A stretch of 64,000 nt of DNA from Psilocybe cubensis (lineage: Eukaryota): assembly GCA_017499595.2 (NCBI GenBank), contig CM039005.1, positions 372,001-436,000 of the forward strand, given 5' to 3'. Shown one piece after another: positions 2,335 through 60,754 of this stretch; positions within the stretch are counted from its first letter, which is position 1; each line of letters opens with the position of its first letter. Made by a program: the position numbers and the translations under genes. Below the pieces are notes generated by a model, which saw only the letters and a list, made by a program, of their open reading frames with translations, was not told the DNA's origin and ran no database searches.

Positions 2335-2426
2335 CACGTCGGGATATTCAGAATATGAAGTTCCCACGAAGTGGGTAATCGAATGTTACAAAATATTTGA
2401 AATATAATAAGGTTTTAAATGATGCA
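2335..2426 (+). repeat. Left terminal inverted repeat (92 bp)
   Basis: CACGTCGGGATATTCAG...TTTTAAATGATGCA is the exact reverse complement of 8162-8253. Confidence 0.95.
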
Positions 2427-2928
2427 GCTTTAGCTGGTGAAGAGAGATTAAGAGTGTGATTCTCTCGCATTAGGTGAGAATAAGCAAAGGAGTGTATGTA
2501 AAGAATGTATGTAGCTAGCAACCTGATGTCAATGATATCAGGGTTTGGGTGGGGAGCACCACCAAATCTGTGAGAGTCTGAGGTCCATGGTGGTCAGCGG
2601 CTAGACAGGGAAAAACAGAACAAATGGGAGACCAACGTGGAAATGCCGTGCGTAACGCTAAGACTCGCTGATTTTGGATGGTGCAACCAACTCGAAATGC
2701 GAGGGAATACTCCATGAGGCTGTGGAAGAGTCCAAAGTGAGCAAGGACCCCCAAAAGACCAGAGTAGGAGGGAAAGCAATGCCCGACGACGCGTCGAGCG
2801 AAATGGAGGACTCCCACACATCAGGAGGCGGGCAATACACGGGGAAAGGAAAAAACGCGACAGAGGAAGAAAACGTAGCAGGAATAGACACTCACGAGAA
2901 ACACAAGTTCACGGGTTGGAACGTCAGT

Positions 2929-6601: not shown

Positions 6602-7774
6602 CCCATTTTGCTAGTGCGTCGGACTGGACAGCGAGTAAAGCATAAACAGCAAAGTATAAGGCATAAAGCGGAAAGCAGGGTGCATGGTTGGAGAGAGTAA
6701 GGGTCGAGAAAATAAAGCAGCGGTGATAAAGCGGCGGGGGGTAAAGCAAAGAACGGCAAGCAACGAGCGTAAAGCAAACGGCGTGTAAAGCAATATGTGT
6801 GATGCACGGGGGAGCAGAATGAAAATAACAGCGGGTTAGTTTGATACACTACTGAGAAAGAGAGGAGCACGCACCCTCGCTAGTTCGTGTTGTGCATCTC
6901 TGGCATCGCGGTCGTCGTCTATAACCTTGGCTTTGATTTTCCTGTACAGCTCGTCGCTGAAGCCCGCCAGATCCCAGCCTCCTTCACCGGATGCAATGGA
7001 GATATGCCAATCCTTGCGAATACTCTCCTGGTAGGTAAAAAGCGCGAGGCGATTGAGGCGACCAGGGTCAAAACGCGACGAGTGGTTCTCGATGCCTTCG
7101 AAAAAACCAATGAACATGAGAACACGTTCGGCTGGCCAGCCGGCGCGGCGAATCGCAGTAATAAATCTGGCAGTGGCAACATGAAATTCCTCCCACGTCA
7201 AGTCTTTATCCGGGACGATGCTGCGTGAGTCTTTAGTTACAAGAGAAGGAACAAACGAGGCAACCCCAGATTTCCAAACAATGGACATGGATTCGTCGGA
7301 CGTGGCGGCATGGGCGCTAGCACGGGCGTCTGCAACGCCGGCATTTGTGAAGTACCAAAGTTCGACGTACTTGGCAGCGTCTAGACGGCGAAGGGCGGCG
7401 GGGTTGATGACGACAGGGAGGTCAACCGGGATTGGGCGATCAAGAACAGGGCAAAACTTTGCTCGGTTCTTTTTCACTTCCTCCAAATGGGCAGCCTCTG
7501 CATCTTGTTTGAGAAGCTGTGCGGCCTGGTCAGCCGCTTCCTTATCGAGGCGCGCGCGTTCCTCGGCCCTGGCAACCTCGTCTTCGCGCTGTGCTTGCCA
7601 CGCGGTTTTTTGAACCTCGTTCATGGCGTGCCATATAGCAGTCAGCGCCGCTACGGCTTGTTCGTCGGTGGCGCCCGGGACGGCAGTTTTGTGGGCGTCG
7701 CGAACGGCTTGAAACGCAGGGAGCGTGTAATCCGGAGGGACAGCGTCCGTAGGATCGTCTACAATGCGTGCCAT
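6150..7774 (-). CDS. Gag-like ORF1, two exons (7774-6875, 6623-6150), C-terminal Cys/His zinc fingers
   Basis: ATG at 7774 (MARIVDDP); YVELWYFT motif; phase-0 intron GTGCGT..TCCAG joins HELAR to SDALAKW; CAVCLGRRSH...C and CSGCGSFTHGAQKC zinc knuckles. Confidence 0.75.
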
Positions 7775-8161
7775 GGCGGGAAATTTTTTCTGAGAGGCCG
7801 ATTTACTGAGTTCTGACGAACAGAGACTGAAAGGAAATTTTCTTGGACGATCTAAGGGTGGATGCGTCCAAAAATTGTTGCTTCGTCTGTGTGGTGAGAG
7901 GGAAAGCGGTGTCGCTCTCACCCGCTGACTCAGCACATAGTAGCCGTTCAGCGATCGTAGCATTTCATTACACTTCACACTGAACATAATTGATATAAAA
8001 TATCTTGGTCTCAAAGAGGATGATTCAGATTTAATATACAAGTCATTCTTGAAATGTACTTTATGTATAAAATTTATCACAACATTCTTTAAAGATTTGG
8101 ATGTTGCCATGTAATTACAATCTTAGTTAACATATGTATTTCTTTTGTATTTAAAGCATGT

Positions 8162-8253
8162 TGCATCATTTAAAACCTTATTATATTTCAAATATTTTGT
8201 AACATTCGATTACCCACTTCGTGGGAACTTCATATTCTGAATATCCCGACGTG
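8162..8253 (-). repeat. Right terminal inverted repeat (92 bp)
   Basis: Exact reverse complement of 2335-2426. Confidence 0.95.
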
Positions 8254-39831: not shown

Positions 39832-40744
39832 ATGTCGAAGAAAATAATCATTGTTGGTGGCCACGGAAATGCACGTACCATCCCCTTTTCGCTCCTAATT
39901 CGCAGTCGGAGGCTGACATCGCTTGGCATTCACACAGGTATCTCTAAGGCTGACCAAATTACTCACCCCAAATCACTCTGTAACATCTATAATCAGAGAC
40001 CCTGCACAAGAGCAGGACATCAAAGATTTATCTGCAACACCGCTCGTGCTGTCCTTGGAGGATTCACCCGTGTCTGACTTTACCGCAGCGTTCACCGGGA
40101 AGGATGTTGTGTATTTCTCCGCAGGAGCCGGTGCGCGAGGTGGGGAGGAGCGAACGAAGAAGGTAGATTACGAAGGCGCTCTGAAAGTGTTCGATGCCAT
40201 CGAGGCTGTCGATAGCCCAAAGCCGAGGCTCATTCTCGTGTCAGCAGTGGACATACGCGACCCAGCAAAGATACCTGCTCACTATGTAAGTGAGACGGTC
40301 ACCATACCATCAGCGGAGTAAAAACGCTGATCATATTCGAGTTCAGAACGAAGAAGACATCGCTATGTCGAATAGAATCAGAAAGGTTATAGCTGCATAC
40401 ATGCACTGGAAATATGAAGCGGATAAGAATCTGGCCAAACGCACCGCCTTCAAATGGACTATACTCCGTCCTGGAGGGTTGACTAATGCACCAGGCGTTG
40501 GAACTGCCTCCATCGGAAGGACACATTTGACCACAACCATCACAGTAAGCATATGAGTTTAAGAAGAGTTCCAATAGTTCTAACAATGTTATTTTAGAGG
40601 GATGATGTGGCTAAAGCCCTTGCACTTCTTGTGGACAGAGAGGATGCAGCTAGCTTGGCAATTGATTACGTTGGAGGAGACACGCCTATCGAAGAGGGTC
40701 TAAACGCTTTCATTGCCAAGGGTGAAACAGATTTTCTAGGATAG
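39832..40744 (+). CDS. NAD(P)-binding Rossmann-fold protein (atypical SDR, yeast YMR090W-like)
   Basis: IIIVGGHGN; DVVYFSAGAG; KVDYEGA; WTILRPGGL; DDVAKAL. Confidence 0.85.
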
Positions 40745-43015
40745 CAGCAATGCTGTAGGTAAAAACTCAAGAGGTGTACTAAAATGTTTCTATACAATTT
40801 GAAACTTTTCCCCTGGTACATCTGGTATATGATCTGGATTCTGAGGTCCGTTTCTGATCTTGCTTGACAAATATGATTTAAAAATTCGCTCACTTTCCCC
40901 CAATATGAGAATAATATCGAAAGTGTGACACCTGCGTTCCATCGAAAAGCAGAGGACCGTGGCATAGAGATAAGTAGAGTTGAATCACCAAAGCCGACCA
41001 CGAGCAACTGTGGCGTCGTGAGATGTGGAACAAGGGCAGTAGTTAGTCCAAAATTCAGTCGAAGATATAATGATGGATCTGTTAAGCTTAATTTTTTTCG
41101 CTGACTACTAATTTCTCAACAACCCTTCTTCGAGGGATTTCGGGGATGTGATCATTTCAAATACAGACTCGTTAATTTTGCCGCCAATGAACACTCAATG
41201 TTGACTTGTGAACCAATTCAAACAGTCAAAGGACTAAGCAATTATTTAGAACGTACCTTTCTCATCTCTGTAAGCCTATTGCAAAGGCTGCAATCTCAAA
41301 CTGGCTGTGGGTCCATACACAAAGAGCGTCGGCAATTGCTTCTCCGACATTAAGAACGGTATTTTTTCCGTTGGCAACACAAAGAACAGAGCCAGCCTTG
41401 CCGCTTCAAGAGAAGAGGCCCTGAGTTCATTGTACTTATCCTTATGCTTACCGTAGTCCCACAGAAAAGTTCAAGTTTTGAGTGTGTGGTGGTGGGGCCG
41501 TAGGCGGTGGACAGACTAATCGATGATGTGCGCATTGTAAAGCCCAAAATGTCGCTGAGCAATGCCGCACAACTTACGAGAAGATCACAGACAGGGACAC
41601 CTGGCTCAAAGATAAGACGGGATTGAAATGTTGATAGCTCAGATCACGTTTCCTCATTTGTTGACTGGGCCCACGTAGTGCTTCCACTTACCATTTGTTA
41701 TAGAAATGTGTCACAGAACTCACTGCTTGGTTGGAGATAGAGAACAGATTTGATATGTGCGAGGATTGCAGACCAAAGTTGGATCTCTTAAGATTCAATC
41801 AAAAAAAACATCAGCTACTCCACCCCTAGCAATTTCGAAGTAAAAAAACGATCCTTAGTGCAAGTTATCATTATTTGGCTTTTCACCAAGCTGGAGTTCT
41901 TCTGGCGTCCACAGAAGCTGGTGGCTTAGGAACGGGAAGACAATCGGGGGTAGGCAAAACATAAATGATGTGGAGGGATGTTAATAGTCGATCCAACGAA
42001 TAAAACGGGTATGGGACTCACAGGGGCCAACGCCCCGGCTGCCGTTGGATGTTGTCCAAAAGGATGATAAAAATGACATTCGGGTATGCCAGCGGAATTT
42101 CCAGAGCAGGAAGACGGCGGCAAGAGAGTTCTAGTTAGAGGCAGATACTTGAGACGTCCCAAAGCAATAGCCAACATGCGTGCGTTGCAGCCAGTACTAC
42201 CAGGGAATCAGGGACAAAAGCAATTAACGAGAGGCCGAAGTCGACGCAAAAAATAACAGTCCAAGCCTCAGAGCAACACGGATAGACACGAGTATCGATT
42301 CCTATTCGAGAGTTGCATTGATGAACACCCAAGATCAGAGCATTGGACGATTTCTGCAAGCCCAAAAGATGACGCCCTTGAACATAGGGGTAAAGCCAGA
42401 TTATACTTGAGCCAAGACGTTAAGACCAAAGGCGCAGTAGAAACAAAGAACGAATCCTATAGGTCAAGACGCAACATTAGCGCTCACAAGACAGCAAATC
42501 AGTCCACATGGTGGCCGAGAGTCGGAACAGTCAGTGAGCATACAAAAAAGTTCCAGCAGCATAGCAAGGTACGATCAGATAGATCCAAGATAAAGTAGCG
42601 AATTTGAGTAGCAAGGAAGAGAGGGAGTAGCGCAAACACAGCAAATTAAAAACAAAGAGTTCAAGCCAGAGATTGATGGTTAAGTCCAGAAAAGCCAAGA
42701 CTCAGCGATCAGAGGGCGCACGTGACAGGTTCCGATCGCGTCAAGCTATAAATAGACCAGTGCCACTCGATTAGAATTGCGATCGACAAGACGTGAAGGA
42801 AACGCGAAGATGTCCATCCAGGTAGGCATGCTACAATGTTGAATAAGAAGTGGATTAGTGGAGCTTACATTGTACTGCATAATGAGGCTTCAATAAATTC
42901 ATCGAATCATCGAATGCCAAAATTCCCGCAAAGTCAACTCACAATGTGCCACACTACGTGGGCTCATTGAATACCGGTGTATCTGCACGGCTAATTTCGG
43001 ATATGCATCACATTG

Positions 43016-43521
43016 AATATTGGAATGCGGCGGGATATTGGAATGCGGGTCGGGATGAATAGGGTCGGAATCTTTGAATCGGGGTTGGGATAGTGGATGT
43101 GGTCGGGACGTTGAAATGGGTCAGAATCTTCGAATCGGGGTCGGGATAGTGGATATGGTCGGGACGTTGAAATGGGGTCGGAATGAATGGAATGCGGGGC
43201 GTCGGGTTGTTGGAATGCGGGGTCGGGATGAATGAGTTGTCGGCCTATTGGAATTGGGTCGGGTTGTTGGAATGCGGGGCATCGGGTTGTTGGAATTCAG
43301 GGTGTCGGGTTGTTGGAATGCGGGGTCGGGATGAATGGGTGTTGGCCTATTGGTATTGGGTCGGGATGTTGGAATGCGGGTCGGGATTGATGCCAGCATC
43401 GAGATATTTGAATAGGAGTCGGGGTATTGAAATGGGGTCGGAATGTTGGGTTGGGATGAACGGGTTGGCAGGATGTGTTGGCATAAATGGGGTCGGAACT
43501 TTGCAACCAGAGGCGGGATAT
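43016..43521. repeat. Subterminal minisatellite, ~21-bp unit GGGGTCGGG(T/A)TGTTGGAATGC
   Basis: About 20 degenerate tandem copies; strongly G-rich plus strand. Confidence 0.9.
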
Positions 43522-43695
43522 TAAAACACTACTGTACTAAATGCCGTCGACGGCGTTTGGATTTCAGTTTACCGTAGTGATACTTGTTAGGATCAATGCT
43601 ATCACACTGGTACATGAGAAAGGAGAAAGCATACAAATGTTATTCAAAAAAGTACACAAGCTATATTCAAAATAAAGAACACATGTATGTACAGA

Positions 43696-45421
43696 TTAGT
43701 CAAAAAGATCCAGCTCCAAGTTGCCCGCAAAGTGCTCCGACGTGAACTGTGGTTGAGCAGAATTCTCGTCAACGTCAATTGAATAGTCCGATTCTGCAAA
43801 TGAGTTACTAATAGTCAGAAACTTTTTGAATATGATTTAAGCTAGAATACTACATACCTTCTGCAGAATCAAAGAAAAGGTCGGCAGCTTCATTGGCTAG
43901 GTCCGACAAGGTTGAGCGACTTGACTCATTGTTGGTATCTTGAAGCTCATCAGCAAAGAGCTCTAATGCCTGATTAATGGCATCCGAGTTAGTTTCGCTG
44001 ATGTCGGAATTATTGTCGGTATGCTCTTGAACATTCCCCGACGCCCCAGCCTGTTGGTCTTCTTCAGCGTCAAAGAGTTCGATCGCAGCCTTGACCATGT
44101 TTTTGAGGTTTTCTGCAGAGTTATCGGTACTGAGATTTTCTGCAGAGTTATCGGTACTGCGTTCGCTGACGTCAAAGTCCGCCATCTCTCCGCCACTAGA
44201 ATCTGAACCTTCTGTCCCTGTTTTGAAGTACCTGGGAAGATCAAGATTGTTAGATGGAGGTGCCTTGATATCTTCGCGGGACAAAATGGAGTTTGTCGGA
44301 AGGAATAAAGTGCGCATTTTTGAATCGCTGAGTTCGGATCTTTTGCCCAAGTCCCCGCCATCTCGAAGACTCTTTACATATCCCGAATGAACTGTTTTTG
44401 TGGCGACACCAAGAGCACGAACCTGCGAAACTATGAGACATCAGGTCAAATCCACTTTAAAAACAATAGCATACCTGCTTGACAGTGAGTTGTGCATCCC
44501 AAGTCCACTTGGATGAAGGTGTGTTGGGGATGGGTTCGGGCTTCAACGGCAATAATTGGGAAGCTTTGTAGAGCTTGAAAAATCCTGCAGCGCGGTGTGC
44601 AATACGGTCAACGCTGTGGCTTGACTGACCCGCGTTGGCCATCAACATGGTTTTAAACCCTTGTAGCTGGTGAAGTACGTCGTCAGCAAGAAAAGAAAGT
44701 CGGGAACATGAGTCGCATGTTGCAGAATTGGCGTTGTTGAGAAGCATGAGAATCGGTTTGATTTGAGTCGGAATAACGTCGGAAGGCACCGACGATGTTG
44801 GCTGCGATGCCTTGGCCAGATCTTCACGTTCTTTGTCCAGGCATTGCTTCAACTCACCCTCATGATACTTCATGACGTCGGTAAGATTGCTTCCATTTAA
44901 AATGTCGTTGTCGTCAGACGGCGGAGTGTTTTTCAACCACCACGCACACATGTACGAGTTGACACGTCTGTCGAGGGCAGTACAAGGTGCCCCCACCGCC
45001 AATAAATTGATCATACTTGGGTCAATATCCAGCGGGAGCAATTCTGTTCTAGCAACAGCCAAAGTATTGCACAGAGAGCGCAGAAGGAGTGGCATTTCAA
45101 TAACCTGAGATCCTGCGTAGGCGGCACCAATACACGCTAAGACAACATCCTGGTCGGAGTGCGTGATTTTCATATGATAAGTCCGACGATCATGTGATAG
45201 AAAAAACTTACTAATTCAATCTGCAGAGTCTCCTGCATCCACTTTTTTTGACGCGCAGTAGGAGCCTTAACGATGTGTTCCAGAATCTCTCGGAATCGAG
45301 ATGTTGCAAATATAGCAGTTTTTTGGATTTGTCTGCCCTTCTTCAACCGATGCGCATAATTGTGGTCAAAAGGATTGAACACAGTGATGACTTTGATAGC
45401 TTTGGGGTCTCCTGCACTCAT
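43696..45421 (-). CDS. KDZ cargo gene 1: hypothetical protein with acidic C-terminus (4 exons)
   Basis: ORFs 45421-45170, 45173-44457 and 44350-43850 joined by GT-AG introns; final exon ends LELDLFD*; internal duplication STDNSAENL x2. Confidence 0.6.
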
Positions 45422-45489
45422 GATGGATGTGGATATGATGGATGTAGATAAGAAAGATGGGTTTGGATAAGAAAAATGTGTATTTGAAA

Positions 45490-48400
45490 TTACATTGGTT
45501 TGTAGAGGGAATTTATCCGCCTAAATAAGTAATCTCCAGCCACCGCCAAGCTATACCAAGCATCTGACTTGCGATATGCATATGCTCTCCTACCCGCACT
45601 AAGTGTCGGCTCCAACATTGTATATGTTTTCCACTTTTTACTCTGATGTATAAAAAATGCAACCATCCATTGCATTTCGTATCGTACCAGTGTCGCCTCT
45701 TCTAGCCACCTGTGATATAACACTCGTGCCCTCAACCAATGTACTCTTTTAACTGTATAGTCGGGTAGTCGGGTCGGAAATTTATAAGCGCCCGTAATAT
45801 ATCATTAAAATAACTCACATTCAAGCACAGTGGCGGGATCTGCTTCCTCTGATAATGTGTTTGGGTCGGCATCGGGAGTAGCTGTCGGATCAAGTGCCCA
45901 CCGCGGTCCGAATCTTTGGTGTACAGAATACCAAATCCATGACAAACGGAATTTGGTTGATCCCGGCAAATTTGGATTAAGAATTGCAGTACTTGATTTA
46001 ATGTCTTCTTTTGTTAAAATGCGCAACTCCTGAAGAATTTCATCATTGGCCCCCAACTTGACAATACGAGTTCGGCAGTGTGAGTATGCCTGCGCATGCA
46101 TTGAAATTTGGTCTTTTAACTCTTTTACCGCCGTTTGACCTCGTGTGCGTACCCCTTTGCGTGGACCCTTTTGGACAACTTCTTTGAACTGGAAAGACCG
46201 CTCTGCTATTAGTTCTCGGATCTGGTTAAGGTGACTTCTAGCTTTTGATATTCTGGCTTCAAGTTCATCTGATGCATAAATTTTGCTTGCAGCACCATTT
46301 GATGGTAAGCATATTGGCTGTAGATCAATATCCTCGTTTACTGTCGGACCCAACCCAGGAGCTAGAACATCTTCTTCGTCTTCCCAGTCAATTAAAATCT
46401 GGTCGGATATGTCAATGTCTTGTCTCCCGGTAGCAACAACACCTGCTTTGGCCTGAAGTTTATTGAGTTGAACCATCAATGTTTTGAGGGAGTCTCGTAG
46501 CTTTTGAAGCTTGACGCGGTCGGTAAGACGATCATGATTGACAAGCCGACGTGCACACATCCGTATGTCCAATCTAAAATATTAAAACTTGCATTAGAAT
46601 AGTTTCACTTAAGATAACTATACATACTGTTTCTCTTCAATCACTAAAGCAAACTGGATCCATGATTGTACTGGAGTCAGTGGTGTAGAAGGACAGGCAC
46701 AGTCACTGGTATTGACTGTCGGAGCGGATCCAGGCCACTTAGCAGTATAAATGTCCATTAGCTTTGGGTCTTGCAATCGATTTTTTTCTACATGTTCAAT
46801 CTGCTGTGTCCATAATTTGATGGCTTCAGGATCAGCAGAGTTGGTAAGATTGGAAAAACATATCCGATATTTGTCTCTTGTTTCTTCAGCTTCTAGATAC
46901 CGTTGGCAAAGATACTTGGTTATTCCAAGAGCCTTTTTGTGGTTGGAATCACATGCATGATCATCAAGTATTTCTGCTTGATGAGCTAATGTTGCCGTTT
47001 GAGCTGCAGGGGATATAGCATTCAAGTCGGCCCACAATGATTCAAGAATCTCTCCGCAGACACAGGAGGCACCAGGAATAAATGTCGGAGCATATCGGAA
47101 AAAGCACTCATCCTTGTGAGCATGGACATGGAACATACCAATTGCTCTGTCAATTTTGAGTCCATTGGGGAGATGGTCCTTAATTCGCTTGAGTAGCCAG
47201 ATGATATACTGGCAGACAATATCATATATAACCATGGTGCCTTGGTCAGGATGGACACCAGTTGATGCAAGTGCAGCTAAAAATGCAAAGTCTACATTTT
47301 TCTGCTGCTCACCTTTAAAAAGATCAACTAGTGCATTTGGAGCATAGCACCCATGTCGGGCACATGCAATGCCGACAATTCCTGTAACATTGCAAGATGA
47401 CTTGGACAATAATGAATTTTGAATTGCATGAAATGTATTCTTGCATGGAGCACCCTAGTATTAGTTAGTTATACTGATTGTCACAGTAAAAAAATGGTTA
47501 AACAGACCGTCAATGCCTCAATAGCAGATTTAAGAAATGCATGGTACTCTGCGCGGTCAGGTATCATGCCACTACCTTCTGAAAGCCAGACATCTCAAGA
47601 TGGCTTTTCTGAGCGAATATGATCAGCCTTGAAGTTTCCATCAGCTACAAATATCCGTTTGTAAACCCAACGATTTGGGTCTTCTCTCCAATTGTCGGGT
47701 AAATTAACTCCAGGTTGTGGGCATGCGGGACAAAAAATTCCAAGTTCTCCTTTTCCAACAGACAGCGCAGCCCTCCCATTATGCCCTGCAAACCCCGACC
47801 ATTTGAGTTTTTTCATCCACCTCCATAGTCGCGACATTCTTCGGAACTCATTGTATAGGTCCACAACACTTGAAGGAAACATTGGATTTGTCACTTGTCG
47901 GATAAGAGAGTAGAACTGATATGCTGATGCCTTGAGTTCTAGGTTGGATAAACGGAAATAGTCTAGAAGCTGGGCGGAGAAAACTGTACGAATGCGGTGA
48001 AAACTTGTTGGCAATAATCGACTTGCAATGAGATCCAGAGGAAGATTGTTGGCTCCATGGCATACACAATAAACCATGGCTAGGTGGTGGACACCATTAG
48101 TATGAATTGCCCGAATATAGGCATTGTTGAGTCCGTCAGTCTTTGGAGTCCCTGTCGGAATGCCTTTGTTTGCCGACTGTGGTCGGAGATATTGAGGCAT
48201 GTCCCGTACATCTGCCTCTGCTTTGCTTACTTCTTCTTCATTGTCACAGTCTTGAATATTGTCTAATGAATGAGGATCTTCTCGGCACCTGTTTAGGTAT
48301 GCCTCAAACTCCTCATCTGTAGGGCCATTTGGATCCAAATTCTCTGGGTCTTCCTCAAGATTTTCCATCTGAATATCAATACTGTTTGTGTATTCTGTCG

Positions 48401-49191
48401 ACTGCTCGATGGGCGCTTGTTTCCATTTCAATTGTTGTAGTTGATTTTGTTCCTCCTCGTCCTTGGTTTCTTCAATATTTTCAAGATAATTAATCTGGAA
48501 GTTCAATGAAGAACATATAGAATCTCCTGTATGATGGGGTATAAGGATATAGGTACCAGTCTCCCATAGCTGAGCCGGCTGGAAGTGTGTGCCTGTCCAA
48601 CATTCCACTTTGTGCAAAGGATTGACGCGGTGAGTATGCCGCATACACTTTCTGCAAATAAGGGATGGTAAGCTACAATCCTTGCACCGCCATACCGCAA
48701 TCAAATTGCTATCACAACTAGAGCAAATAGGAGGTTCAGAATCCTCAGAAATATTGGGTGCTTCTTGGCTCAGTAATGCCCCTAGTAAATCATCCACACG
48801 CAAAACAAATTCGTTAATATAGTCTCGTTGTGTCTATCCACATTATGCTGGTGAGATTACTTTGTAAAATAATAAAATATGTTCATACCTTCCGAATTTT
48901 TGGGACTACATTTTCATCATGGTGAGTTGAAGGTAGACTGTTTTCATCCTGACTAAATCCAGCATCCTTGTTGAATGTACCATGCTCCTGTTCTTCTAAA
49001 CCTATTGGCTTCTTCTTATGAGGTCGATTTGTGGTACTCAAAGAAACCTTCACTAGCTCTGAAACCACCTTTCCTGCTCGCGTGGTTCTGGTTTGATTCT
49101 TGTATGTAACAGCATCTGCTGCATTAGCATCATCTTTGTATAGTGCCTTCTTCCTGGATTTCCTGTTACTTGATGTTCGTTGAGATGGCAT
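45490..49191 (-). pseudogene. CxC2 + KDZ transposase with in-frame TGA at 47595-47597
   Basis: CRKCMRHTHRVNPLHKVECWTG; HTNGVHHLAMVYCVC; CPACPQPGVNLP; ADGNFK; ACARHGCY; YDIVCQY; FHVHAHKDEC; GEILESLW; RARVLYHRWLEEATLVRYEMQW. The reading SEKPS*DVWLSEG continues in frame. Confidence 0.9.
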
Positions 49192-49502
49192 AATAGAAAC
49201 AAGAGGAGAAATGATCCCTATCTTGGTTAGACATTGCTATATCTTAGGGTGGCTTATTCCAACTGCATAGTTTATCCTTACCTAATATGCATATTTTCTA
49301 CTTGTGGGCTGGTATAAAAGGAGCAGGGTTCTTGACGGTATTTTTTACCATTCATTCTTCCCCCACATTCATTGTTTTTAGGGCAAATCTGATTATTGCA
49401 ACCCAAGCCTGAACATATTCACAAGGTTAGTCTGTTCTTGTGCTATTTGACTATGTGAAGAACTTACTGCATGAATATTTTACATATTCTGTTTGATATA
49501 GC

Positions 49503-51831
49503 ATGGCCAGTACTGAAAATCCTGTACTCGAAGACATTTTTCGAACCCATGATAGATTAGTAAGGGTGTACGATTGTCAAGAGCGCGAAATAATTGAAAA
49601 ATACAAAGATAATTACACCAAAGCTACAACTAATCTTGATCGTAAGCAGGTGGTTTGTGAAATACTACCTGCTCTTTTCAATCACTGGAGTAAAAGTAGG
49701 ACTGTAAGCCGTAGTAGAGATTTTATGCAGGAGGAGGCAAAGGTACGTGCATTGGCTGTGGTTGGAATAATTTACTTTTATTGAGACAAGTGTCGGGCCC
49801 GACCATACAATAGGTATAATAACAATCTTGGTTATAGCTTAGTCGGAACTAATATTGTATATTATAGAAACTACTGGCTTGGATTTGAAATAATTGGAGA
49901 GGAGAGCGACTTACAAAGGCGGCTACAATGGGCAAAAAATTGAAGCGTACAACTGTACTCTGGTATAATAGAAGAGAGGAGGTCTACAAGGAAATTGCCA
50001 GTATTCTAGGAATAGAATTAGCAGGAGTCGGGACACCAGGCGTTTTTGAAAATCGCATGAAAGCGATGAGTAACATTCTTTCCCGAATGTCCGACCGCGA
50101 AAAAAGACAGCTTGATGTGGAAGCATCAAATTATGCATCGGTGGTTTATTCCAATGAGGACAAGCGCAAGTAAGTGTTTAATTGAAATACAAGATCAACC
50201 TACTACTTAATTCTTCTTTAGAAAAGCAAAGAAGTATGCTTTTAAGAAGCTAGATGAGACAGCAAATCAACACTGGGCAGAAATGGGATTGATGAGTATC
50301 ACATTTGTTTGTCAAATTAATGAATCTGGCCAACTATCAGTCCAAGTGTGCGTTTTCAATTACAAGTCCACTTTCTAGTTGCTCATTTTATGATTCCGAC
50401 CATCTCCAACTGATGTAATATCCGACTCCGACTGATTGAATAACTCCAACAAACTCTATGACTCCGACACTCTCTGACTTGTATAGTCATGATCAAGTAG
50501 CCAGTGTTATTGGAGTTTGCTCAACTTTATTTGAAGAGCAAAAGCCAGATGAAGTCATACAAATGAAGCGGTTGATCAGTACTTATGTCCGTGGGTTATT
50601 AAATGCTAAAGAAAGAGCAACATCTGGAATGCAAATAACGGCAAAATCGGACTTATTTATACTTGATCAAGATGCCGATGGATTCCCAATCTTACCTCAA
50701 GACTTTGATGCCTCCAAGGTCAATAGAAAAGATTTAGAGTCTCTGCTCCGCCTTTATCTTGGTCAAAACTATAGTAAGCATAAGACTTTTGAGTTCAATT
50801 GGTGTGCTAAATTTTTAATAGAACTTGCAACACACGGTCGCACTTCGCAAACTCCTTACGAGGCTATTGAACTTTATCAATCCAAATTTATCTCTCCTGA
50901 GTACTTACCGCCCCGCTTCAAGCTAAAGCGGCCCCGATTTCTTGATCTTGAAGACTTGCGCAAGTTATTTACACATCTCCGATCACGTCAAGAAACATTT
51001 CCACTCAGTCAAGTATTTCGCTTTCGCAAAGTTAAAAAGGGGAGAAAAGGAGATGACCTGGAAGATACATGGTATCCTGATGAGACTCGCAACATTGATG
51101 CAGAAAGGAACAAACGTCGGCCTCCACCACCAAAAAAACCTAAAAAATCCAAGACAGCTCCGATGCGAATTGAGGAGATGGAGGGTGCATCAAGTTTGAT
51201 CACATTTGATTCCACTCAGGAAGCTATGCAGACTGGGACTGCAACACCACATGGTAATACAATTTTAGATTCCATGATTGACCCAGCTTTACGGAGTGAA
51301 TCCACTGCCAGTCATAATGTTCTTCCGGATCCAAAGGCTACTACAGATGAACAAATCACAATAAATGTTTCTAGTATACAAATTCCTCCTGCTGAAAATT
51401 CTCAACCCCGACCCCGACCCCGACCTCGTAAACCACCTACCACCCCGGCTGAGATTGCACAGCATCAACAGAACCTTCAAGATTTGGATAATGCATGGCG
51501 GATTTCCAATGAGCTTCTTGGATTGCAGTTGCCCACTTCAATTGAACCTGCACCCGCACACGCACCCGCACCCGCACACGCACCTGCACCCGCACCCGCA
51601 CCCGCACCCGCACCACCTGCACCCGCACATGCACACACACACACACCCGCACCCACACATGCACCCGCACCCACACACGCACCACCTGCACCCGCACCCG
51701 CACATGCACATGCACCCGCACACACACCCGCACCCGCCCCTCTGGCAAATAGAAGAAAAAGAAAGGAAGTAGAGGAAACATTGATTATTGAGGGTAAAAG
51801 GACCCGCCGCCCTCGAGAGAGAACTAGTTAG
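49503..51831 (+). pseudogene. KDZ cargo gene 2: multi-exon hypothetical protein with Pro/Ala tail and basic C-terminus; in-frame TGA at 49886
   Basis: Divergent from the transposase; exon 2 reads KLLAWI*NNWRGER in frame with ORF 49928; 457-aa terminal ORF with NLS-like RRKRK and KRTRRPR. Confidence 0.6.
51547..51740 (+). repeat. (GCACCC)n repeat encoding PAPAHA
   Basis: Tandem hexamer visible in the sequence. Confidence 0.9.
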
Positions 51832-52000
51832 TTTTTTGCTATATCAGTTAGAGTACTTCTTTTCAAGTAGAAGTTTAGTTATAATAACTTTCATATTTCA
51901 CACTTCAAAAACACTTGCAAATCCTCAATATTATACAAGAACAAAAACATAATATATTGAGAGAAAAAAAAATATTTTTAAGAAAAACAAAAACCCCGCC

Positions 52001-54698
52001 CTACAAGGCATTGGCATCTACAGAGGGTGGCGGAGGCGACAACGGAAGTGCTGGTGGTGTGGTGGGTGGCTGAGGGGGAGTAAAATCAACCGGAGGATTG
52101 AGAGAAGAAGCACCTTTGGCACCATCGACATTTTCCACATTTTCCGTTCCGATGGCCTGAACTCTGTGATCCGCAGCAGGATTGGCGTTGTCGTCAATGG
52201 CGTGATCGGCAGTGAGATCTATGACGGCATGATTGGCGTTGTGGTCAGAAGCGGGATCGACGTTGTTGTCGGATGCGGGATCGGTGTTGTTGTCGGAAGC
52301 GGAATTGGCGTCATTGTCGGAGTCGGGATCGGTGTGATTGTCGGAAACGGGGTCGGTAGCAGAATTGGGATGGTAGTTTGCAGAGGTGCCTGCCTTGTCA
52401 TCTGAAGACAAGTCCATCGGAATTGAACCATCCGTCGGACCATCCTCAGCGGCACTCTCTACGTCTTCCACAAACTCCTCAGAAAGATACGCACCATCAC
52501 TGTTCATCTGATGCATCTGTATCTTGTCAATGCAGCCTTCAAGAGAGAGAAGAGTATCGTCGGTCCTGTCAAGAGAGTCGGAAAGATGCTTAACCTCTGC
52601 CTTCATCTTTCTCATTCCAGCCTCCCACTTTGCTCCAAACGCCGACTGACGATCGACCACGGCATTTCGATGTCTGCTAACTCGCTCGCATAGGTTGTCG
52701 TAACTGCGCTTGAGTGAGGTATACGATGCTTTCAAATTGTAAAGCTCCTCCTGAAGATCTTCATTAGTTGTTTTCAGAATGGCCAAGTCAACCTGAGTTG
52801 CGCAACCCATGATTTCCAACTCGTTAATCCGCTTTGCGAAGTCGGCAATAGTCGGAATGTCGGTGATGTCGGAGTCTTGCAATCGACGTGGAGGAGTAGC
52901 CCTCTGAACTGTTGTTAAGGGTGCAGGAGTAGGTGTGGGTTTGGAAGGGGCGGGTTTTGAAGGAGCGACATTTGATGGACCAGCTTTCAAAGAAGCGGGC
53001 TTTGCAGGAGCGGGGGTTTCAGAGCCAGAGCTAACCTCAAGATAATCAACTTCAAAATATGAGTTTCAATGTACAGATGAGATAAAACTTAATTGAACAC
53101 ACCTGATTCTGACGGTTTGGTTGTTTTCTGTGTCTCAGTACCAGATTTTTCCTCCTCTGAGGCGTCATCAGTGTCTACCACATCTGCAATAAGTGAATAA
53201 AAATGAATATTCAAGAATAGAACAATTAGATAGCACGTACATTGTTGAGACTTCACCCGTTTTTTGGGTGGCATGGCCTCCTTGTTGGAGTGAGTAACAG
53301 GTTCTGACTGCTTGCCCTTTGGTCCCCGTTTTGATGCTTTCGCCGCAGAAGCCTTGTTAGCCCGACGACTTTCGGAAACCAACATACCTCCCCATGTGCA
53401 ACCCTTCTTGTGCTTGCTGCAAAAGGCACAAGTGCGTTTCCCTGTGTTGGTGATAATCTCCTGGCACTCCTTGTTGTTATTTTTGAGGCATTGATCGCAC
53501 TTTGTGGCTGGAGCCGTTGGAGTCGCTGCCTTGACCGACCTTTTGCGCTTTACCCCTGTCTCCACCCCCGACTCCTCATTCTCCGATGACTCCTCGTATT
53601 CGGAGCCCAATTTTGGTGGTTGAGTAGGATCTTCTTTAAGCATTCTTTGCAGCTTCAACGCCCTAAACTTGTTTTCAGGGCTATCGGGGCAATCAAAGTG
53701 TACCATTGCAACTTCGTGAGCAAATAAACCAACTGACTTTGTCGGAAAGCTTTCCTTCGATGCCTGTTCTTTCTGGACACGGGGTTTTGACTTTTGATTT
53801 GGTTTGTCGGCATGCGAAGGAGCATGGCGGGACAAAGATTTGGGATTGGGATGAACAGGATGGGACGACGAAGCGGAACGGTTGGAAGTAGCCAGTTCTT
53901 GTAAATATAGAAGTTTTTTAAGAATATTATATACACAACAACAAAGGTACATACCTGCAAGAGCTCTTGAAGCATGGTTTGGCTTCAAAAGCACATTAGA
54001 CAGTGCTACTGAGTCGAAGAAGACCACCACTAAGTCAATACAAATTTAAATTTCAATACTGAGAACAACACTCACAGACTGTAGCCTCAGAGGGCGTCAA
54101 CTTAATCGCAGCGGCTTGGGTGGACACAGTTCCAGCAACAGTACTATTGGTGGAATTAAGAGCCTTGTGATCCCAACCAGAACTGGACTCCGTGGGTCCC
54201 TGATGTGCAACGACGGCAGGTGGGTACTTGCGCCCTCGAGACGAAGTCGACTCGATGTCTGACACCTGACTTGCAGGTGCCTTGCGAGTTGGGCCCAACT
54301 GCGACATGTCGGAAGTACGAGTCGGGGCCGACTGCGACATGTCGGAAGTACGAGTCAGGGCCGACTGCGACATGTCGGGTGTGCGAGTCGGGGCCGACTG
54401 CGACATGTTGGGTGCGCGAGTTGGGGCCGACTGCGACATGTCGGGTGTGCGAGTCGGGGCGGACTGCGACATGTTGGGTGCATGAGTCAGGGCCGACTGC
54501 GACATGACAGGAGCACGAGTCGGGGCCGACTGCAAAGCATCGGGAGCGCGATGGGGCAATCCATTCGACGTTGGGGTCGGAGTTGCCTCAACGGCATTGG
54601 AAGCAATTGAGGTGGAGGTTGCCATTGCACTGGCAACCTCCAATTTTGCCAGCGCATTGCGATGCTTGGAGACAAAGGTGGCGCCGTCAAAGTCGCCC
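52001..54698 (-). CDS. KDZ cargo gene 3: multi-exon protein with 11-aa repeats, Zn2Cys6-like cluster and coiled coil (5' end unresolved)
   Basis: ORFs 54053-54643, 53089-54030 and 52001-52990 with GT-AG junctions; CDQCLKNNNKECQ...CAFCSKHKKGC; heptad region; DPASDNN repeats. Confidence 0.6.
54284..54535 (-). repeat. 33-bp coding tandem repeat (MSQSAPTRTPD), 7-8 copies
   Basis: GGGGCCGACTGCGACATGTCGGGTGTGCGAGTC-type unit repeated in tandem. Confidence 0.92.
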
Positions 54699-56310
54699 GC
54701 TGAAGATCGAAGTTTGTGATTGGTTATAAACTATATGTAATCCAACAAACACAAACCCCAGGGAAAGAGTGGTCCAGACTGGATAGGACGAAACCTTCTC
54801 CTAAGTTTCTTAAGGGAGGACGCTGCCTAGGATTTAAGTAGATTAGGATGGTGTGGATTGTGAAGGGTAACGAAAGCGAAATAGTAAGAAGAGGATAACC
54901 GGGTCATCTGGGTACAATAGTAAATAAGCCTTCCGAAAATGGGATGGAACCGTGGAATTGGATGGCGGGTGTATATGGAAAGCGTGAAGAAGATGCGTAG
55001 AATGCGTATGAGAAATCAATAAATGTGAATCTTAGAGGGGTGGTCGGAAGTGAGTGGGGAACGTTCCGAGGGGAGATGAGAAGATGACTAGGAGTTGGAA
55101 TGTCGTTGAATGGCTGAATCTTGATAAGCGGATGGTAAAGGCGAAAGTGTCCTTAAATTGACAATCTTTCTGAAGCTTGGAATGAAGCTATACGTTGCAG
55201 GAGTATTGATTGAATCGAGGATGAAAGACTAAGTCTGTCTCGAATGAAATTGCTCCAGATGAGTTGACGGAGGGAAAGGATGTCTTGAATACACTCCTAA
55301 CGGCAATGGTTGGAAGGTGTAGAAAGAGTAGGAGCAGTGACGGATTGAATGGAGGAGAGGAAGTAGGGAAGTACTGGAGGTCTGGATAGAAGTTGGATAT
55401 TCAACGCTGAGAAGAAGAGGCGTTGGATGAGGAGGATGACTGGTCTCAGATGAAATCCTCTCTTAATGGAAAGCAAGATGACTTCGGATGAATGGAAGTA
55501 AACTTGGTCTCGACGGAGGGTAGAACTGATGACTGAATTGGACTTGGGTTTGGGCTTGGCTTGAACTTGAGCTTGGAATTGAAATGAATCGATGTGGATT
55601 GACTTGAAATTGACTTGACTTGGATGAAAATTGACTTGCTTTGAAGAAAGTGGGGACTGGGTGTAACTTTCCTGTCATTTCATGTAATTCTACTACAGCT
55701 TTTATACTAAAAGCTACGTGAACAAAATACCAATCTGAGCTACTGAAAACCAAGTCATATACTGTACAAAGTGTCAAGAATGAGGCTACGCAAGTGTAAC
55801 AATAAGCAAGAACAATAAGACATGTCAATATCAACACGACAACAGATAAGAAATGAATAGGATGAGTAAGAAAGAAGTGTATGACGAAGGTGAATGGTAA
55901 TACAGATTAGATAAAAGAAGCAAGGATGAGTCAGAAAGCATAGAAGATTGGTAAGACAAAGACAATAAAAGCGCAACAGACAATAGAAAAGATATAAATA
56001 AACACAAAAGGATGAGTAAGACAAACCAAAAATAAGTTGGAATGAGTAATCCGCAGCCTGACGCTGAGTAAGACCATTGAATTGATAAAAATAGAGTTGA
56101 CAGTCCGGCTGTGCAAGGCAGTGTAGAAAGCTGTGCAGTTTGATGGTTGACTGATCCGTCGCATAGCCTTGATGATCCGACGAAGTGACATGATCCGGAA
56201 TAACGTGGCTCCCATGTGACAAGTGTTGATAAGATAAGATGTGTGGATGACTTATGGAAAGAATGACTGCTTGGGTTGAGGGCGTCGTGTGTAGATCCAA
56301 AATGAACATC

Positions 56311-56629
56311 TCATCTCCAATCAGGATTGGGGTATGATACCGCGGCATTGGATTTCTTGTAATCCACAACAACCGACCACAGAAACTGTCCGAATTCCTT
56401 GAAAATCTCAGGATGTGTCTGGGCCTTTTTGACACGTAAAACCTCCTTCTGCACCAGGAATTTAGTAATGTATTGCATGAAAAAAAATTTCAACGGGGCG
56501 CACCATGACCTCGTTCGACTTCCTCATCATCTTTTTTACCTCCCCCCTCTTTACTGCATCCTTGATATTGGCGTCGAGTTGTGCGAGAGCGGCACGAAGA
56601 GATTCGGCGGTGCTGATTTTGAAGGCCAT
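56311..56629 (-). CDS. KDZ cargo gene 4: small two-exon ORF (possibly truncated by TGA)
   Basis: MAFKISTAESLRAALAQLDAN..SNEVM|KEVLRVKK..YPNPDWR*; intron GTGCGC..ACTAA..GCAG. Confidence 0.45.
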
Positions 56630-56902
56630 TTCGTATGTATATGCAAGTTTGAAGATGTGAGCTTGTAGCGAGCTGGTGGTAGTGGTGGTAGTGGGAGAAG
56701 GAAAGGTAAGAAATGGACAGTGAGCCCCCTGTGCTCGATATCGGCTACCTACACGATCACATGATCGTTGAAATTAAATTGGTGGCACGCGTGTCGGATT
56801 GATTGCGTAGATAGCAAAGCTTGGTATTCTTGTCCGACCAATATAAATAGGCTTAAGGATCCGGTAAGTCGCCCATTTGCTATCATCAAATTTTCCCCAG
56901 AT

Positions 56903-57472
56903 ATGAGTGTCCAGAATTCCTCACCAAACATTCTGGAAGGCTACGTTGCTATTGATGGCCCGGACAACATCAAGTATGTTGTCCCCCGCTTTATAATCTC
57001 CTCATTGGAGAATGATTTGGCAGCCTTAGGTGCTAAAGAGGATGCCAATGTTGTTACTGCCGACCTGACTCGAGTAAGTCCAATCTAAATATGACTGATT
57101 CATAATTAACATCCTATTCTAGAAGAATAATTCTAAACAATCGGACGCGTATGTCACCTTGTCAGGTATTTTGCGAGTGCCCCCCCGAAAATGTGAGTCG
57201 ATTCTAGTCATGTATACTCTGGGAACTAAAATGGGTTTTAGTCTTTGACCGATAATGAGATGCTCACACTTCATGCCGAGGTGTGTGCTTTGCAGAAGAG
57301 TCTTGGCATTTCGTATCAGGATGCCGCGCATCGGCTCTATATGGCGGAGGTCGCAAAATTGAAGGTGGCGGACGGGGATAGGAGATATCATGCATACATG
57401 GATCGATGCATGACCAAAACTCTCATCAAGTTGGAAGAAAGGCATACCTTCCGTGAAGATCTTAGAAAGTAA
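56903..57472 (+). CDS. KDZ cargo gene 5: small multi-exon hypothetical protein
   Basis: TATAAATA at ~56842; MSVQNSSPNILEGYVAIDGPD..; GTAAGT donor at ~57074; last exon LHAEVCALQKSLGISYQDAAHRLYMAEV. Confidence 0.55.
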
Positions 57473-57559
57473 TGGGCTAGTTTACTGTAGCAATTTTTGA
57501 TATGAATAAATTTTGTGTGTCCGACCTAATGTGCACATTAATTGAGTGCATGACCACAT

Positions 57560-57730
57560 TCACACTTGCACCCAAACCCAAACTCGCACCCACACCCGCA
57601 CCCATACCCACTCGCACTCGCACCCGCACCCACACCCAAACCCAAACTCGCACCCGCACTTGCACCCGCACCCAAACCCGAACTCGCACCTGCTTGCACT
57701 CCCACCCGCATCTGCACCAACACCCACACC
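57560..57730 (+). repeat. Degenerate (GCACCC/AAACCC)n repeat, probably non-coding, near the right end of the KDZ element
   Basis: Tandem hexamer variants visible in the sequence. Confidence 0.85.
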
Positions 57731-59083
57731 ATACTGGCACTCATATTCACAAGCACTCACACTGGTATTTGGGTCATATTGTCTCACCATCTTGCACACA
57801 AGTCAAACACCCAGAACCAACATTCCGCTCCTCCGACACCGTGCAAATTCCACTAAGTTGAACATTTATTGATATACCCAACCCGCCCATGTGACGGGTA
57901 CTAGACCTCTCCATATTCAAGAATTGCGCAAGGTATAGTACAATGTAAACTACTGTGTATAGTTATGTGATATTCAGTGTATGAATGAATTTATTGAATC
58001 CATATTATACGATACATTATACCAGTCCACTGTACCATGTTATACAGTACTATGTAGTGTTAGTATGTGGTCCATCCTCCAAGCGAGAAAAGCGCATATA
58101 TCCAGTGAGAATGGAGAATTAGATCGAAAGGGGCCCGATAACCTTGAGAAATTTGGGGAAAGTGTGGCATGCCTGGAGAAAAAATCAAGCAGCAAGTCGT
58201 AAGCATATCAAAACTCAACGCGCCGGTCGACCAAGATATCCAAGTCGAGAGCCAGAGTAATAAAAGCAGTACCATAGCAGAAAATATAGTACTCCAGACA
58301 GAGTCAAGGCGCATATACGAGCGAAGAGAGACCAGCAAGAACTCCCGCAGTGCACAGGCAGGCAGATCAACAAACTGGTGGCATGGATCAGACGGAACGA
58401 AGGTTAGAGAATCAAAAAATAGGGCACACCTCATCTGCATAGATATCAACTTATCGTAAGAGTAAGCCTGTGAGCAATCCAATGGGAGTCAACCAGGGAA
58501 AGCGCGTCATGCCACAGTACATCGGTAGATCAGTGGCACCAAGTCAATTGCGACATCAAACCCACAAGAAAATTGCGATCCCACAGAAGGGAAAGACTAA
58601 CAGAACAGCATAAACGTCCATGCAAATGTGATGAGTGGATTCGGGAGGAGGAGATGATGAGAGAGGTAAGGAAAAAAGTGGGCGGCCTCGAAAGAAAGGA
58701 GCCCGAGTTTTATAGAATCGGTTCACGTGAGGTTATCTCCGGCCCGCGAAAAGTTTCGGGAACTCCCTTGCACTCAATGAGGCAATTTGCAGTTCCTCTA
58801 ACGCCTTTTCATCCAACTCGGTACATAGCATCGCGTCCGACTCCAAGATGGATGTAATTACGAGCCGTCTTTTGTGCAAATGGCAGAGATATCACTGCAG
58901 ATCAAGATATATCACTGGAATTGAATCCCAAGACCGGAGCCAAACAATGACCGGATCACTCTCGGAACAAACACGGCATGATCGACCAGTCACAGTCACC
59001 GGGCTCCCGAGGGCCGATAAGGGTTATTGTCAACCATCAACCACACTGAGGGAGGACAAAGCTCTTTGGTGTTTTGCCTCGAT

Positions 59084-60754
59084 ATGAGTTCCACACTCTT
59101 TTATCAGACTCAACTTTCTGTGCTATCCTGTATCTGCGTCTTTGCTCTTTTTCTGGATAGACGTGCGACCCGCAAAGTTTGGAATACATCACCAAATTCA
59201 CCGCATTCAGACGGTACACCTGGAAATGATGTACAAAGACGACTCGCTGCCGCATCTCTGTTAGCTTGGAAGTACCTTACCGTGTACGGGATTGTTATGA
59301 GTAGGGTATTACTATTTTTTTAATTGCGCATTCGTTTGACAAACGTCTCCTATCTTTAGCTGCAGATTGGTTGCAAGGGCCATACCTCTATTCTTTGTAT
59401 CGAGAGCAATATCAACTCTCGGAGAGGCTGGTAGCCTCCCTTTTTGTGGTTGGTTTCATATCTGCTGGCCTTGCGGCACCATTAATCGGTGTATGGGCAG
59501 ATCAGCAGTAAGTCATCCTGAAACATCCTCAAACCTACCAATCAAACGCAGGGTGTTTTTATACTCATAATAAATCTCACTAGTGGACGTAGAAAGTTAT
59601 GTCTGGCGTTCTGTATAACATACACACTATCCTGCCTCTGTATCACCATGCCTCACCTCGTTTTACTTCTGCTTGGAAGAATTTTGGGTGGCACATCGAC
59701 CTCTATACTCTTCTCAGTCTTTGAATCATGGGTGATATCGGAATCGACAACTGCATCTCTTCTTCCCGCCGATCTCTCGACTATCCTAGGGCGTGCAACG
59801 CTTCTGAATGGGTTTGTCGCAGCCGGTGCTGGAATCTTAAGCAACCAACTAGTTTTAATGACGAGCAATTTCGCATCTCCTTACATGGCCAGCGCGTCTC
59901 TGCTTTTGTTATCCTGGGTTCTTATTCGGGTGCTATGGACAGAGAACTATGGTGGCGGTGGAGGGCTCCCAAATAAGGATGTTTGGCAAATGAGGCGCCT
60001 TGGGCAGGCATGCACCATCGTCCGTCAAGGTTAGCTTGTATTTGAGTTATGAGATTCATTCAAGCTCATTATGAAAGAATAGACCCTGTACTACTCGTCC
60101 TAGGCCTCGCCCAAACATGTTTTGAGGGGTCTATGTACCTCTTCGTCTTTCTATGGGTCCCATCTCTCCAGGAAAGTTCATCAGACCCTCAATTGCCTTT
60201 AGGCTACATATTCTCCTCTTTCATGATATCGATGATGCTCGGCTCCCTTCTATACACGTTGATCGTTACGCGTCATCAACAACTCTCCGACCCGAAGCCC
60301 TCATCTGTCACACTGCACGCCCAACTCAGCAGCATCGTCTGTGCAGTCAGTGCTCTGGCGTTTCTAACTAGCACCATATTCTTCAGCGAACACACTAGGT
60401 TCTGGGCATTCTGTTTATACGAAGTATGCGTTGGAATGTATTATCCAGTCCAAGGCACACTTCGCGGGGCTCTAATTTCAAATGAACATCGTGCTACGGT
60501 GAGTAACAAGGCTTTTTTTGTCCAGACTAACTTGTTTACCACAAGGATTCTCACAGTTATCTTCACTGTTCCGGGTTCCGTTGAATATTTTCGTGGCTGT
60601 CTCGTTGTTGACCGGAGTTTCTTCGGCGAGGAGAACGGTGCTAGTGACTAGCGCTGTCATGTTGACCGTATCGTCGCTACTGACTGCCATAGTCATCGTA
60701 GACCGTTCTAAAGAACCACAATCCCCTCCATCTCCACGCCCAAGTGATGATTGA
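59084..60754 (+). CDS. MFS transporter, MFSD5/DUF791 (molybdate-anion transporter-like) family
   Basis: ADWLQGPYLYSLY; GRRKLCL; LGRILGGTSTSILFSVFESW; FEGSMYLFVFLWVP; SSLFRVPLNIFV. Confidence 0.88.

Follow-up and report, generated by a model that had tools for sequence, protein, structure and literature searches.

The Kyakuja families of the KDZ transposon superfamily are described as having 7-bp target-site duplications, 5'-CA..TG-3' ends and no terminal inverted repeats (TIRs) (Kojima 2025, PMC12730594), the one source found in the literature for Kyakuja with duplications of this length. Complete Kyakuja elements with defined ends were first described there in December 2025, and those presented are TET/JBP-carrying families only (PMC12730594). 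For the Zisupton and Dileera kinds the same paper gives 8-bp duplications (PMC12730594), and the Zisupton architecture is set out as CxC4+SWIM+KDZ (Huang et al. 2024, bioRxiv 10.1101/2024.08.15.608186). The Cryptococcus elements KDZ1-3, of the Dileera clade, are described as 9-11 kb long with CxC1, TIRs of 139-241 bp and extra open reading frames (ORFs) of no known function (bioRxiv 10.1101/2024.08.15.608186, 10.1101/2025.05.19.654958), and the duplications reported for them measure 4-8 bp (bioRxiv 10.1101/2025.05.19.654958). The 15-kb element considered here lies in a 64-kb stretch of Psilocybe cubensis contig CM039005.1 (positions 372,001 to 436,000), referred to as the window and used for all coordinates below. 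It is very probably a single insertion of a cut-and-paste DNA transposon of the KDZ superfamily, low in copy number and recently mobile. Kyakuja is its most likely lineage and, judged by features, would be the best fit among the KDZ kinds.

The locus combines the features of the superfamily, namely a KDZ domain, an N-terminal CxC cluster and discrete ends with a target-site duplication, and its 5'-CA..TG-3' termini are those of Kyakuja. The sequence GTCCATCC is found at both junctions (42812-42819 and 58070-58077), the element interior opens with CAGG and closes with TGTG, and positions 42819-42820 (CA) and 58068-58069 (TG) are such that both ends, read inward, start with CA. An initial annotation of the window, made from its letters, had proposed just such a CA...TG element between two copies of GTCCATC(C) at 42812 and 58070, and this placement is borne out. 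In this single insertion the duplication consists of seven bases plus an identical eighth, and base 42819 (C), the eighth matching base, is either target DNA or the first base of the element; the duplication would read naturally as 7 bp with a chance eighth base. The 8-mer by itself is not rare, with three matches in the window against 2.09 expected and three reached in 40 of 100 shuffles, and its weight derives from its placement at both junctions and at the empty site.

Evidence for mobility comes from four public sequencing runs (X1, X7, X9 and X13) aligned to window positions 40600-60500, of which X9 carries another organism label and X1 may be the sample that gave the window. An element-free form with a single GTCCATCC is present in three of the four (X1, X7 and X13), the result that the initial annotation had set beforehand as a test of its proposal. 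At this empty joint (42819->58088) the left flank and one GTCCATCC are followed by a close variant of the right flank, in which the 11 letters TCCAACCAAGA replace the window's 10 letters at 58078-58087. The X7 empty form is carried by a 24,421-nt contig, of which 2,413 nt beyond the joint are colinear with the right flank (80 differences, 9 gaps). In X13 it is found in raw reads (19 reads from 15 starts, shorter side up to 68 nt) together with a second empty-form variant in 10 reads, and in X1 it is represented by one contig with a shorter side of 20 nt. A further contig of X7, which represents another strain, shares 57043-58069 with the window (record 13; 9,902 nt); the match breaks off exactly at 58069 and gives way to 8.7 kb of unrelated DNA from outside the window, which confirms the right end and provides the limit of homology with another copy that had been named as a second check.

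Read depth and sequence divergence extend this picture to other copies. The element is covered in X9 at a depth of 5-38 outside a nested repeat described below, with zero depth in all three left-flank bins and values of 0.49, 0 and 0 in the three right-flank bins. In X13 reads cover the element approximately 60- to 108-fold and the flanks 16- to 30-fold, an excess that indicates several copies. The copies differ from the window by 0.6-2.3%, the X7 right flank by 3.3%, and the gene set is colinear in X7 and X9 contigs across 43.3-54.3 kb and to 58069, except for deletions or the absent nested repeat. A scan of metagenomes with a 33-nt pattern from the left end gave no matches. The target region (~42774-42819 plus 58088-58529) is doubled and inverted about 24 kb apart in X1 and X7, on a contig of ~24.4 kb, and its second copy contains several small indels at 58190-58369. 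X7 has the empty junction at both ends of one contig in opposite orientation, and X1 has a contig of nearly the same length and depth that starts within the element's last 29 nt and presumably carries the empty junction at its far end. The target region thus lies in an inverted duplication; the X1 "empty site" is a paralogue and not an allele, and in X7 both copies are empty.

The ends of the element have no long or exact TIR at the tips, and contain instead a 14-nt exact core 70 nt inside, within degenerate inverted similarity of about 130 nt. The core, the 14-mer TTCAATAAATTCAT, occurs exactly twice in the 64 kb, in inverted orientation, with copies that end 84 nt (left) and 85 nt (right) from the element tips; the expected count is 0.10 and two copies were reached in 0 of 100 shuffles. 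Global alignment of the first 130 nt with the reverse complement of the last 130 nt gives a score of 25, where 500 shuffles peak at 6 and 500 random pairs drawn from the window peak at 8. The first 70 nt, which exclude the 14-mer, reach 12, and the best of 1000 random pairs reaches 5. The terminal inverted similarity is degenerate yet real and significant, in agreement with the inverted core and the patchy likeness of the ends that had been noted from the sequence. Subterminal repeats were detected at 43058-43498 on the left and at 57561-57690 on the right. Inside the left end, the G-rich subterminal array differs between copies (X1 joint 43012->43095) and contains putative transposase binding sites. 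An X9 contig matches the window to 42852 and then continues with 38 nt of related but clearly different sequence, so that the terminal 40-90 nt of the left end vary between copies or species.

Gene models for the transposase and the other genes come from tblastn, in which homologues from Psilocybe cubensis were aligned to the window. The KDZ domain of the transposase is confirmed (Pfam PF18758, E = 8e-36; 124 bits, cut-off 26.6), with the first 51 profile positions falling on the preceding exon, and an N-terminal CxC2 zinc-chelating cluster is present (PF18803, E = 4e-16). Over its full length the protein can be aligned with one of 1,175 aa from Psilocybe cubensis, at 62% and 65% identity in two long alignments and 57% in a short N-terminal one. 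The 102 relatives found in agarics are nearly all CxC2+KDZ proteins (best 61% identity over the query exon), and include many from Coprinopsis cinerea and one Pleurotus relative fused to Tet_JBP. Pfam identified no SWIM or CxC4 domain, and found CxC2 instead. The presence of CxC2 rather than CxC1 or CxC4+SWIM, together with the Coprinopsis cinerea and Pleurotus relatives, gives indirect support for the Kyakuja clade. For the element as a whole, 20 ORF pieces were chosen from 54 ORFs of at least 90 aa over 41-60 kb. A TET/JBP dioxygenase domain (PF12851) was found in 0 of the 20 within the element, although a very divergent PE type could escape Pfam, and the pieces scanned contained no tyrosine-recombinase "captain" domain of the Starship type. 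The initial annotation had likewise seen no TET/JBP gene, and the transposase and subterminal repeats that it reported are both there, the latter as two arrays. The features are listed in Table 1.

Table 1. Positions of the element, its ends, its genes and the repeat nested within it.
Feature	Coordinates	Strand	Description and basis
Whole element	42819..58069	.	15,251 bp, CA..TG; ~13.6 kb minus nested repeat; empty joint and end of X7 record 13
Left target-site duplication GTCCATC	42812..42818	.	Single copy in empty form
Right target-site duplication GTCCATC	58070..58076	.	Sequence at junction and empty form
Left terminal region	42819..42948	+	Degenerate inverted similarity to right end; holds 14-mer at 42889-42902
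Right terminal region	57940..58069	+	Holds 14-mer at 57985-57998; ends TG; X7 record 13 stops here
Left subterminal G-rich repeat array	43017..43503	+	Units of 18-56 nt, GGGTCGGGAT / TTGGAATGCGG-like
Right subterminal C-rich repeat array	57561..57714	+	CACCCG-type units; strand polarity opposite to left array
ORF2	43853..45391	-	~3 exons, downstream of transposase; tblastn of fused gene models
Transposase gene (CxC2 + KDZ)	45493..49191	-	~5 exons, ~1,175 aa expected; Pfam and tblastn gene model
ORF3	49503..51831	+	4 exons, divergent from transposase; tblastn with JR316_0006155
ORF4	52001..56629	-	~850 aa, convergent on ORF3; interrupted by nested repeat inside coding exon
Nested high-copy repeat	54701..56339	.	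1,639 bp; depth, joint and loose-end evidence

Three conserved accessory genes accompany the transposase, fewer than the "about five other genes" that had been counted from the reading frames. ORF2 corresponds to the C-terminal part of four annotated gene models that fuse it to the transposase (P0002, P0004, P0041 and P0019, from Psilocybe, Flammula and Agrocybe) at 27-40% identity in tblastn, and has no stop within the aligned exons. ORF3 is 75% identical overall to P. cubensis JR316_0006155 and 74-92% per exon, and combines a conserved helical N-terminal part with basic stretches and a basic, Pro/Ala-rich tail, which is encoded by an (ACCCGC)n array at 51546-51737 and has a counterpart in the P. 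cubensis homologue. This coding array is 60-73% identical to the right subterminal array at 57561-57690, a likeness that may reflect simple-repeat convergence, or a coding repeat that either seeded the subterminal array or arose from it. ORF4 contains an 11-aa repeat region, a conserved block, a six-Cys cluster, basic stretches, a coiled coil and acidic repeats. A search with its last exon among 1.84 billion representatives matched solely two P. cubensis proteins (847 and 857 aa; 65% and 56% identity over that exon), and no homologue of the middle exon was recovered when proteins of 174-557 aa were searched. The 11-aa repeat is encoded by a 33-nt tandem repeat at 54251-54580 (7.5 copies), the copy number of which varies between element copies (joints 54103->54415 and 54445->54637 in X13 and X9).

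The accessory genes also occur together outside the window. In P. cubensis the ORF4-like JR316_0006154 and the ORF3-like JR316_0006155 are neighbouring locus tags, and the ORF4-like JR316_0002977 lies six tags from the best transposase homologue, JR316_0002983, on the same contig. As relatives of ORF2-4 are grouped together or near a transposase, these are genes of the family and not recently captured cargo; the multi-gene mobile unit that had been proposed is upheld, and the word cargo, if taken to mean captured host genes, is not supported. Neither ORF2-4 nor their P. cubensis homologues have a Pfam match above curated cut-offs, and a PDB sequence search of the accessory proteins returned nothing below E = 0.09. 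Atlas searches place ORF3 near unnamed basidiomycete clusters (score 0.94) and gave nothing usable for ORF2 (0.76). AlphaFold2 models from shallow alignments have a mean predicted local distance difference test (pLDDT) score of 38.2 for the ORF3 homologue and 41.0 for ORF2, too poor for a fold search. A metagenome scan with the ORF3 homologue produced 71 pattern matches, 0 of which were confirmed by tblastn. The basic stretches, six-Cys cluster and coiled coil of the accessory proteins would suggest that they are nuclear and associated with nucleic acid or chromatin.

Within a coding exon of ORF4 sits a nested high-copy repeat bordered by CCGC at 54697-54700 and 56340-56343. Its depth is 430-1800 in all four runs compared with 10-50, many different loose ends begin exactly at 54701 and 56339, and the joint 54696->56340, which lacks the repeat, is present in X1, X9 and X13 (24 reads). 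The sequence 54701-56339 has no inverted ends and no Pfam match, and is like a solo long terminal repeat (LTR) but unclassified. The ORFs at 54.7-56.3 kb lie in this repeat, match nothing and are therefore not genes of the element, which may account for the surplus in the earlier gene count.

Further lesions affect the coding sequences of this copy. In the transposase, codon 47595-47597 is an in-frame TGA in place of Arg516 of the homologue, and in ORF3 codon 49886-49888 is likewise an in-frame TGA in place of an Arg; both stops fit a CGA>TGA change at a CpG. The observed/expected ratio of CpG falls from 0.92-0.97 in the flanks to 0.78 in the element, and is 0.62 for the transposase gene. The stops, the lowered CpG ratio and the A/T excess over the X7 and X9 copies fit decay through deamination of methylated cytosine, without being proof of it. 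The copy is complete in structure and, judged from its reading frames, coding-dead, with TGA stops in the transposase and ORF3 and a split ORF4, so that the "complete" transposon of the initial annotation stands for the structure and falls for the coding capacity. For such a copy to move, an intact sister copy would have to provide the proteins. The element is recently mobile in the species group, and the copy itself is an ordinary decaying insertion.

The length of the duplication bears directly on the kind of KDZ transposon at this locus. Eight identical bases on both sides would also suit the same transposon as a member of the Zisupton or Dileera kind, with an 8-bp duplication GTCCATCC and an element at 42820-58069 (AG..TG), as both of these kinds are described with 8-bp duplications (PMC12730594) and the Cryptococcus KDZ elements with 4-8 bp (bioRxiv 10.1101/2025.05.19.654958). 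Such an assignment is unlikely, as both ends read inward start with the CA that is the Kyakuja signature, and a chance eighth matching base is expected in one of every four insertions. The cluster, moreover, is CxC2 and neither the CxC1 of the Dileera-clade elements of Cryptococcus nor the CxC4+SWIM of Zisupton, and there are no long TIRs comparable to the 139-241 bp given for KDZ1-3. It is very improbable that the unit is a composite, with a KDZ core (~42.8-51.9 kb) beside unrelated DNA (52-58 kb). The internal (ACCCGC)n array, 60-73% like the right subterminal array, is readable as an old right end, but it is the coding sequence of the ORF3 Pro/Ala tail, a tail shared by the P. cubensis homologue. 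Contigs of X7 and X9 are colinear across 43.3-54.3 kb to 58069 save for nested-repeat deletions or absence, ORF3 and ORF4 adjoin in P. cubensis too, and the empty site drops the entire 15.25 kb at once. Presence and absence could in principle also arise by deletion or rearrangement between short repeats without any transposition, in line with the location of the target region within an inverted duplication ~24 kb apart and with the 10 nt after the right repeat that differ between the filled and empty forms. This explanation is extremely improbable, given that the 15-kb unit ends at the same base beside different DNA in X7 and is present without either flank in X9, and that the encoded transposase belongs to a family known to move, as described for KDZ1-3 insertions in Cryptococcus (bioRxiv 10.1101/2024.08.15.608186, 10.1101/2025.05.19.654958).

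Several observations nevertheless weigh against a recently mobile transposon of the Kyakuja lineage with the ends given here. Some of the empty sites are the paralogous copy of the target region and not the allele, and X7 provides only 46 nt of left flank, with zero depth on 40600-42591. The left end of a second copy is not directly seen among the read and contig pieces listed. The choice between a 7- and an 8-bp duplication, and thus between a start at 42819 and at 42820, would turn on the CA..TG pattern and nothing else. The weak but significant inverted similarity over ~130 nt differs from Kyakuja as described, which is TIR-less (PMC12730594). Finally, the A/T excess of the window relative to other copies (A>G plus T>C against G>A plus C>T of 154:65 for X7 and 152:84 for X9, counted over the whole aligned stretch with flanks and nested repeat included) is absent relative to X1 and X13.

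For the Kyakuja-type transposon that remains the preferred reading, a mechanism can be outlined from its components. With its N-terminal zinc clusters as guides, the KDZ transposase (RNase-H fold, DDE-type) would bind the terminal and subterminal repeat regions and cut at the CA..TG ends. Insertion by staggered cuts 7 bp apart, followed by repair, would then yield the GTCCATC duplication, and the accessory proteins probably aid transposition or counter silencing. A more specific proposal, offered tentatively and less likely than not to be right, is that ORF2-4 act as a conserved module of three genes in a TET-less Kyakuja lineage. Transposition or escape from host silencing would depend on this module, which would take the role of TET/JBP in TET+ Kyakuja by another route. 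ORF3 would be the key factor in this module because its identity of 74-92% per exon exceeds that of the transposase (61-65%) and ORF4 (56-65%). The locus represents a cleanly bounded TET-less family, backed by an empty site, another site of insertion and polymorphism between strains, in which three genes of no known function travel with the transposase. ORF2-4 are accordingly candidates for how large fungal transposons move or evade methylation-based silencing, and several "hypothetical proteins" of Psilocybe and related agarics are explained as transposon genes.

The insertion lies between genes and is not demonstrably inside one. On the left, a gene for an NAD(P)H-binding protein (PF13460, 1.9e-12) at 39917-40318 is ~2.5 kb from the insertion, and on the right, a gene for an MFS_5 transporter (PF05631, 2e-28) at 59522-60648 is ~1.3 kb away. 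Insertion into the first exon of a gene (ATG TCC ATC C...) was considered and is unsupported, as the frame closes after 44 codons and the 11-for-10 nt replacement in the empty form shifts the frame. Elsewhere in the window, a second mobile element at 2335-8253 (5,919 bp) is bounded by terminal inverted repeats that are perfect over 92 nt (CACGTCGGG...CCCGACGTG), and the AAA found on either side may be a 3-bp duplication. On its minus strand an open frame of 1,178 aa has a C-terminal match to the Phage_integrase (tyrosine recombinase) family (E = 1.4e-6; 28.6 bits, cut-off 27.1), which points to a putative tyrosine-recombinase element, DIRS- or Crypton-like, rather than a CACTA transposon.

Compared with the described KDZ systems, the element shares with Zisupton the transposase superfamily and a similar duplication length (PMC12730594), and differs in that Zisupton is described with an 8-bp duplication and TIRs (PMC12730594) and with CxC4+SWIM (bioRxiv 10.1101/2024.08.15.608186), whereas neither clear TIRs nor CxC4+SWIM are found here. 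The KDZ assignment of the initial annotation is retained and its comparison with Zisupton is not, Kyakuja being closest by its CA..TG ends and perhaps by its lack of true TIRs. The Cryptococcus elements KDZ1, KDZ2 and KDZ3 are alike in being large, in their CxC+KDZ transposase and extra ORFs, and in being low-copy and polymorphic between strains. They are described with CxC1 and long TIRs, in contrast to the CxC2 and absence of long TIRs here, and their movement has been seen experimentally, while mobility at the present locus is inferred from insertion polymorphism only (bioRxiv 10.1101/2024.08.15.608186, 10.1101/2025.05.19.654958).

The closest gene sets, compared at the protein and locus-tag level, are those of P. 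cubensis JR316_0002977..0002983 and JR316_0006154/0006155, where the same genes are annotated only as "hypothetical proteins". Identities are 61% for the transposase (62-65% in long tblastn alignments), 56-65% for ORF4, 75% for ORF3 (74-92% per exon) and 36-40% for ORF2 as a fused C-terminus. Relative to Kyakuja as described, the element has subterminal repeat arrays and carries three accessory genes without a known domain instead of a TET/JBP gene, a contrast drawn from the main text of Kojima, whose Table S1 and Data S1 may list TET-less families (PMC12730594). Kyakuja-1_LB and Kyakuja-2_LB of Laccaria bicolor likewise combine a KDZ transposase in an agaric with several genes (PMC12730594), and the element resembles the described Kyakuja in its CA..TG termini, with a duplication compatible with 7 bp and no long or exact TIR at its tips.

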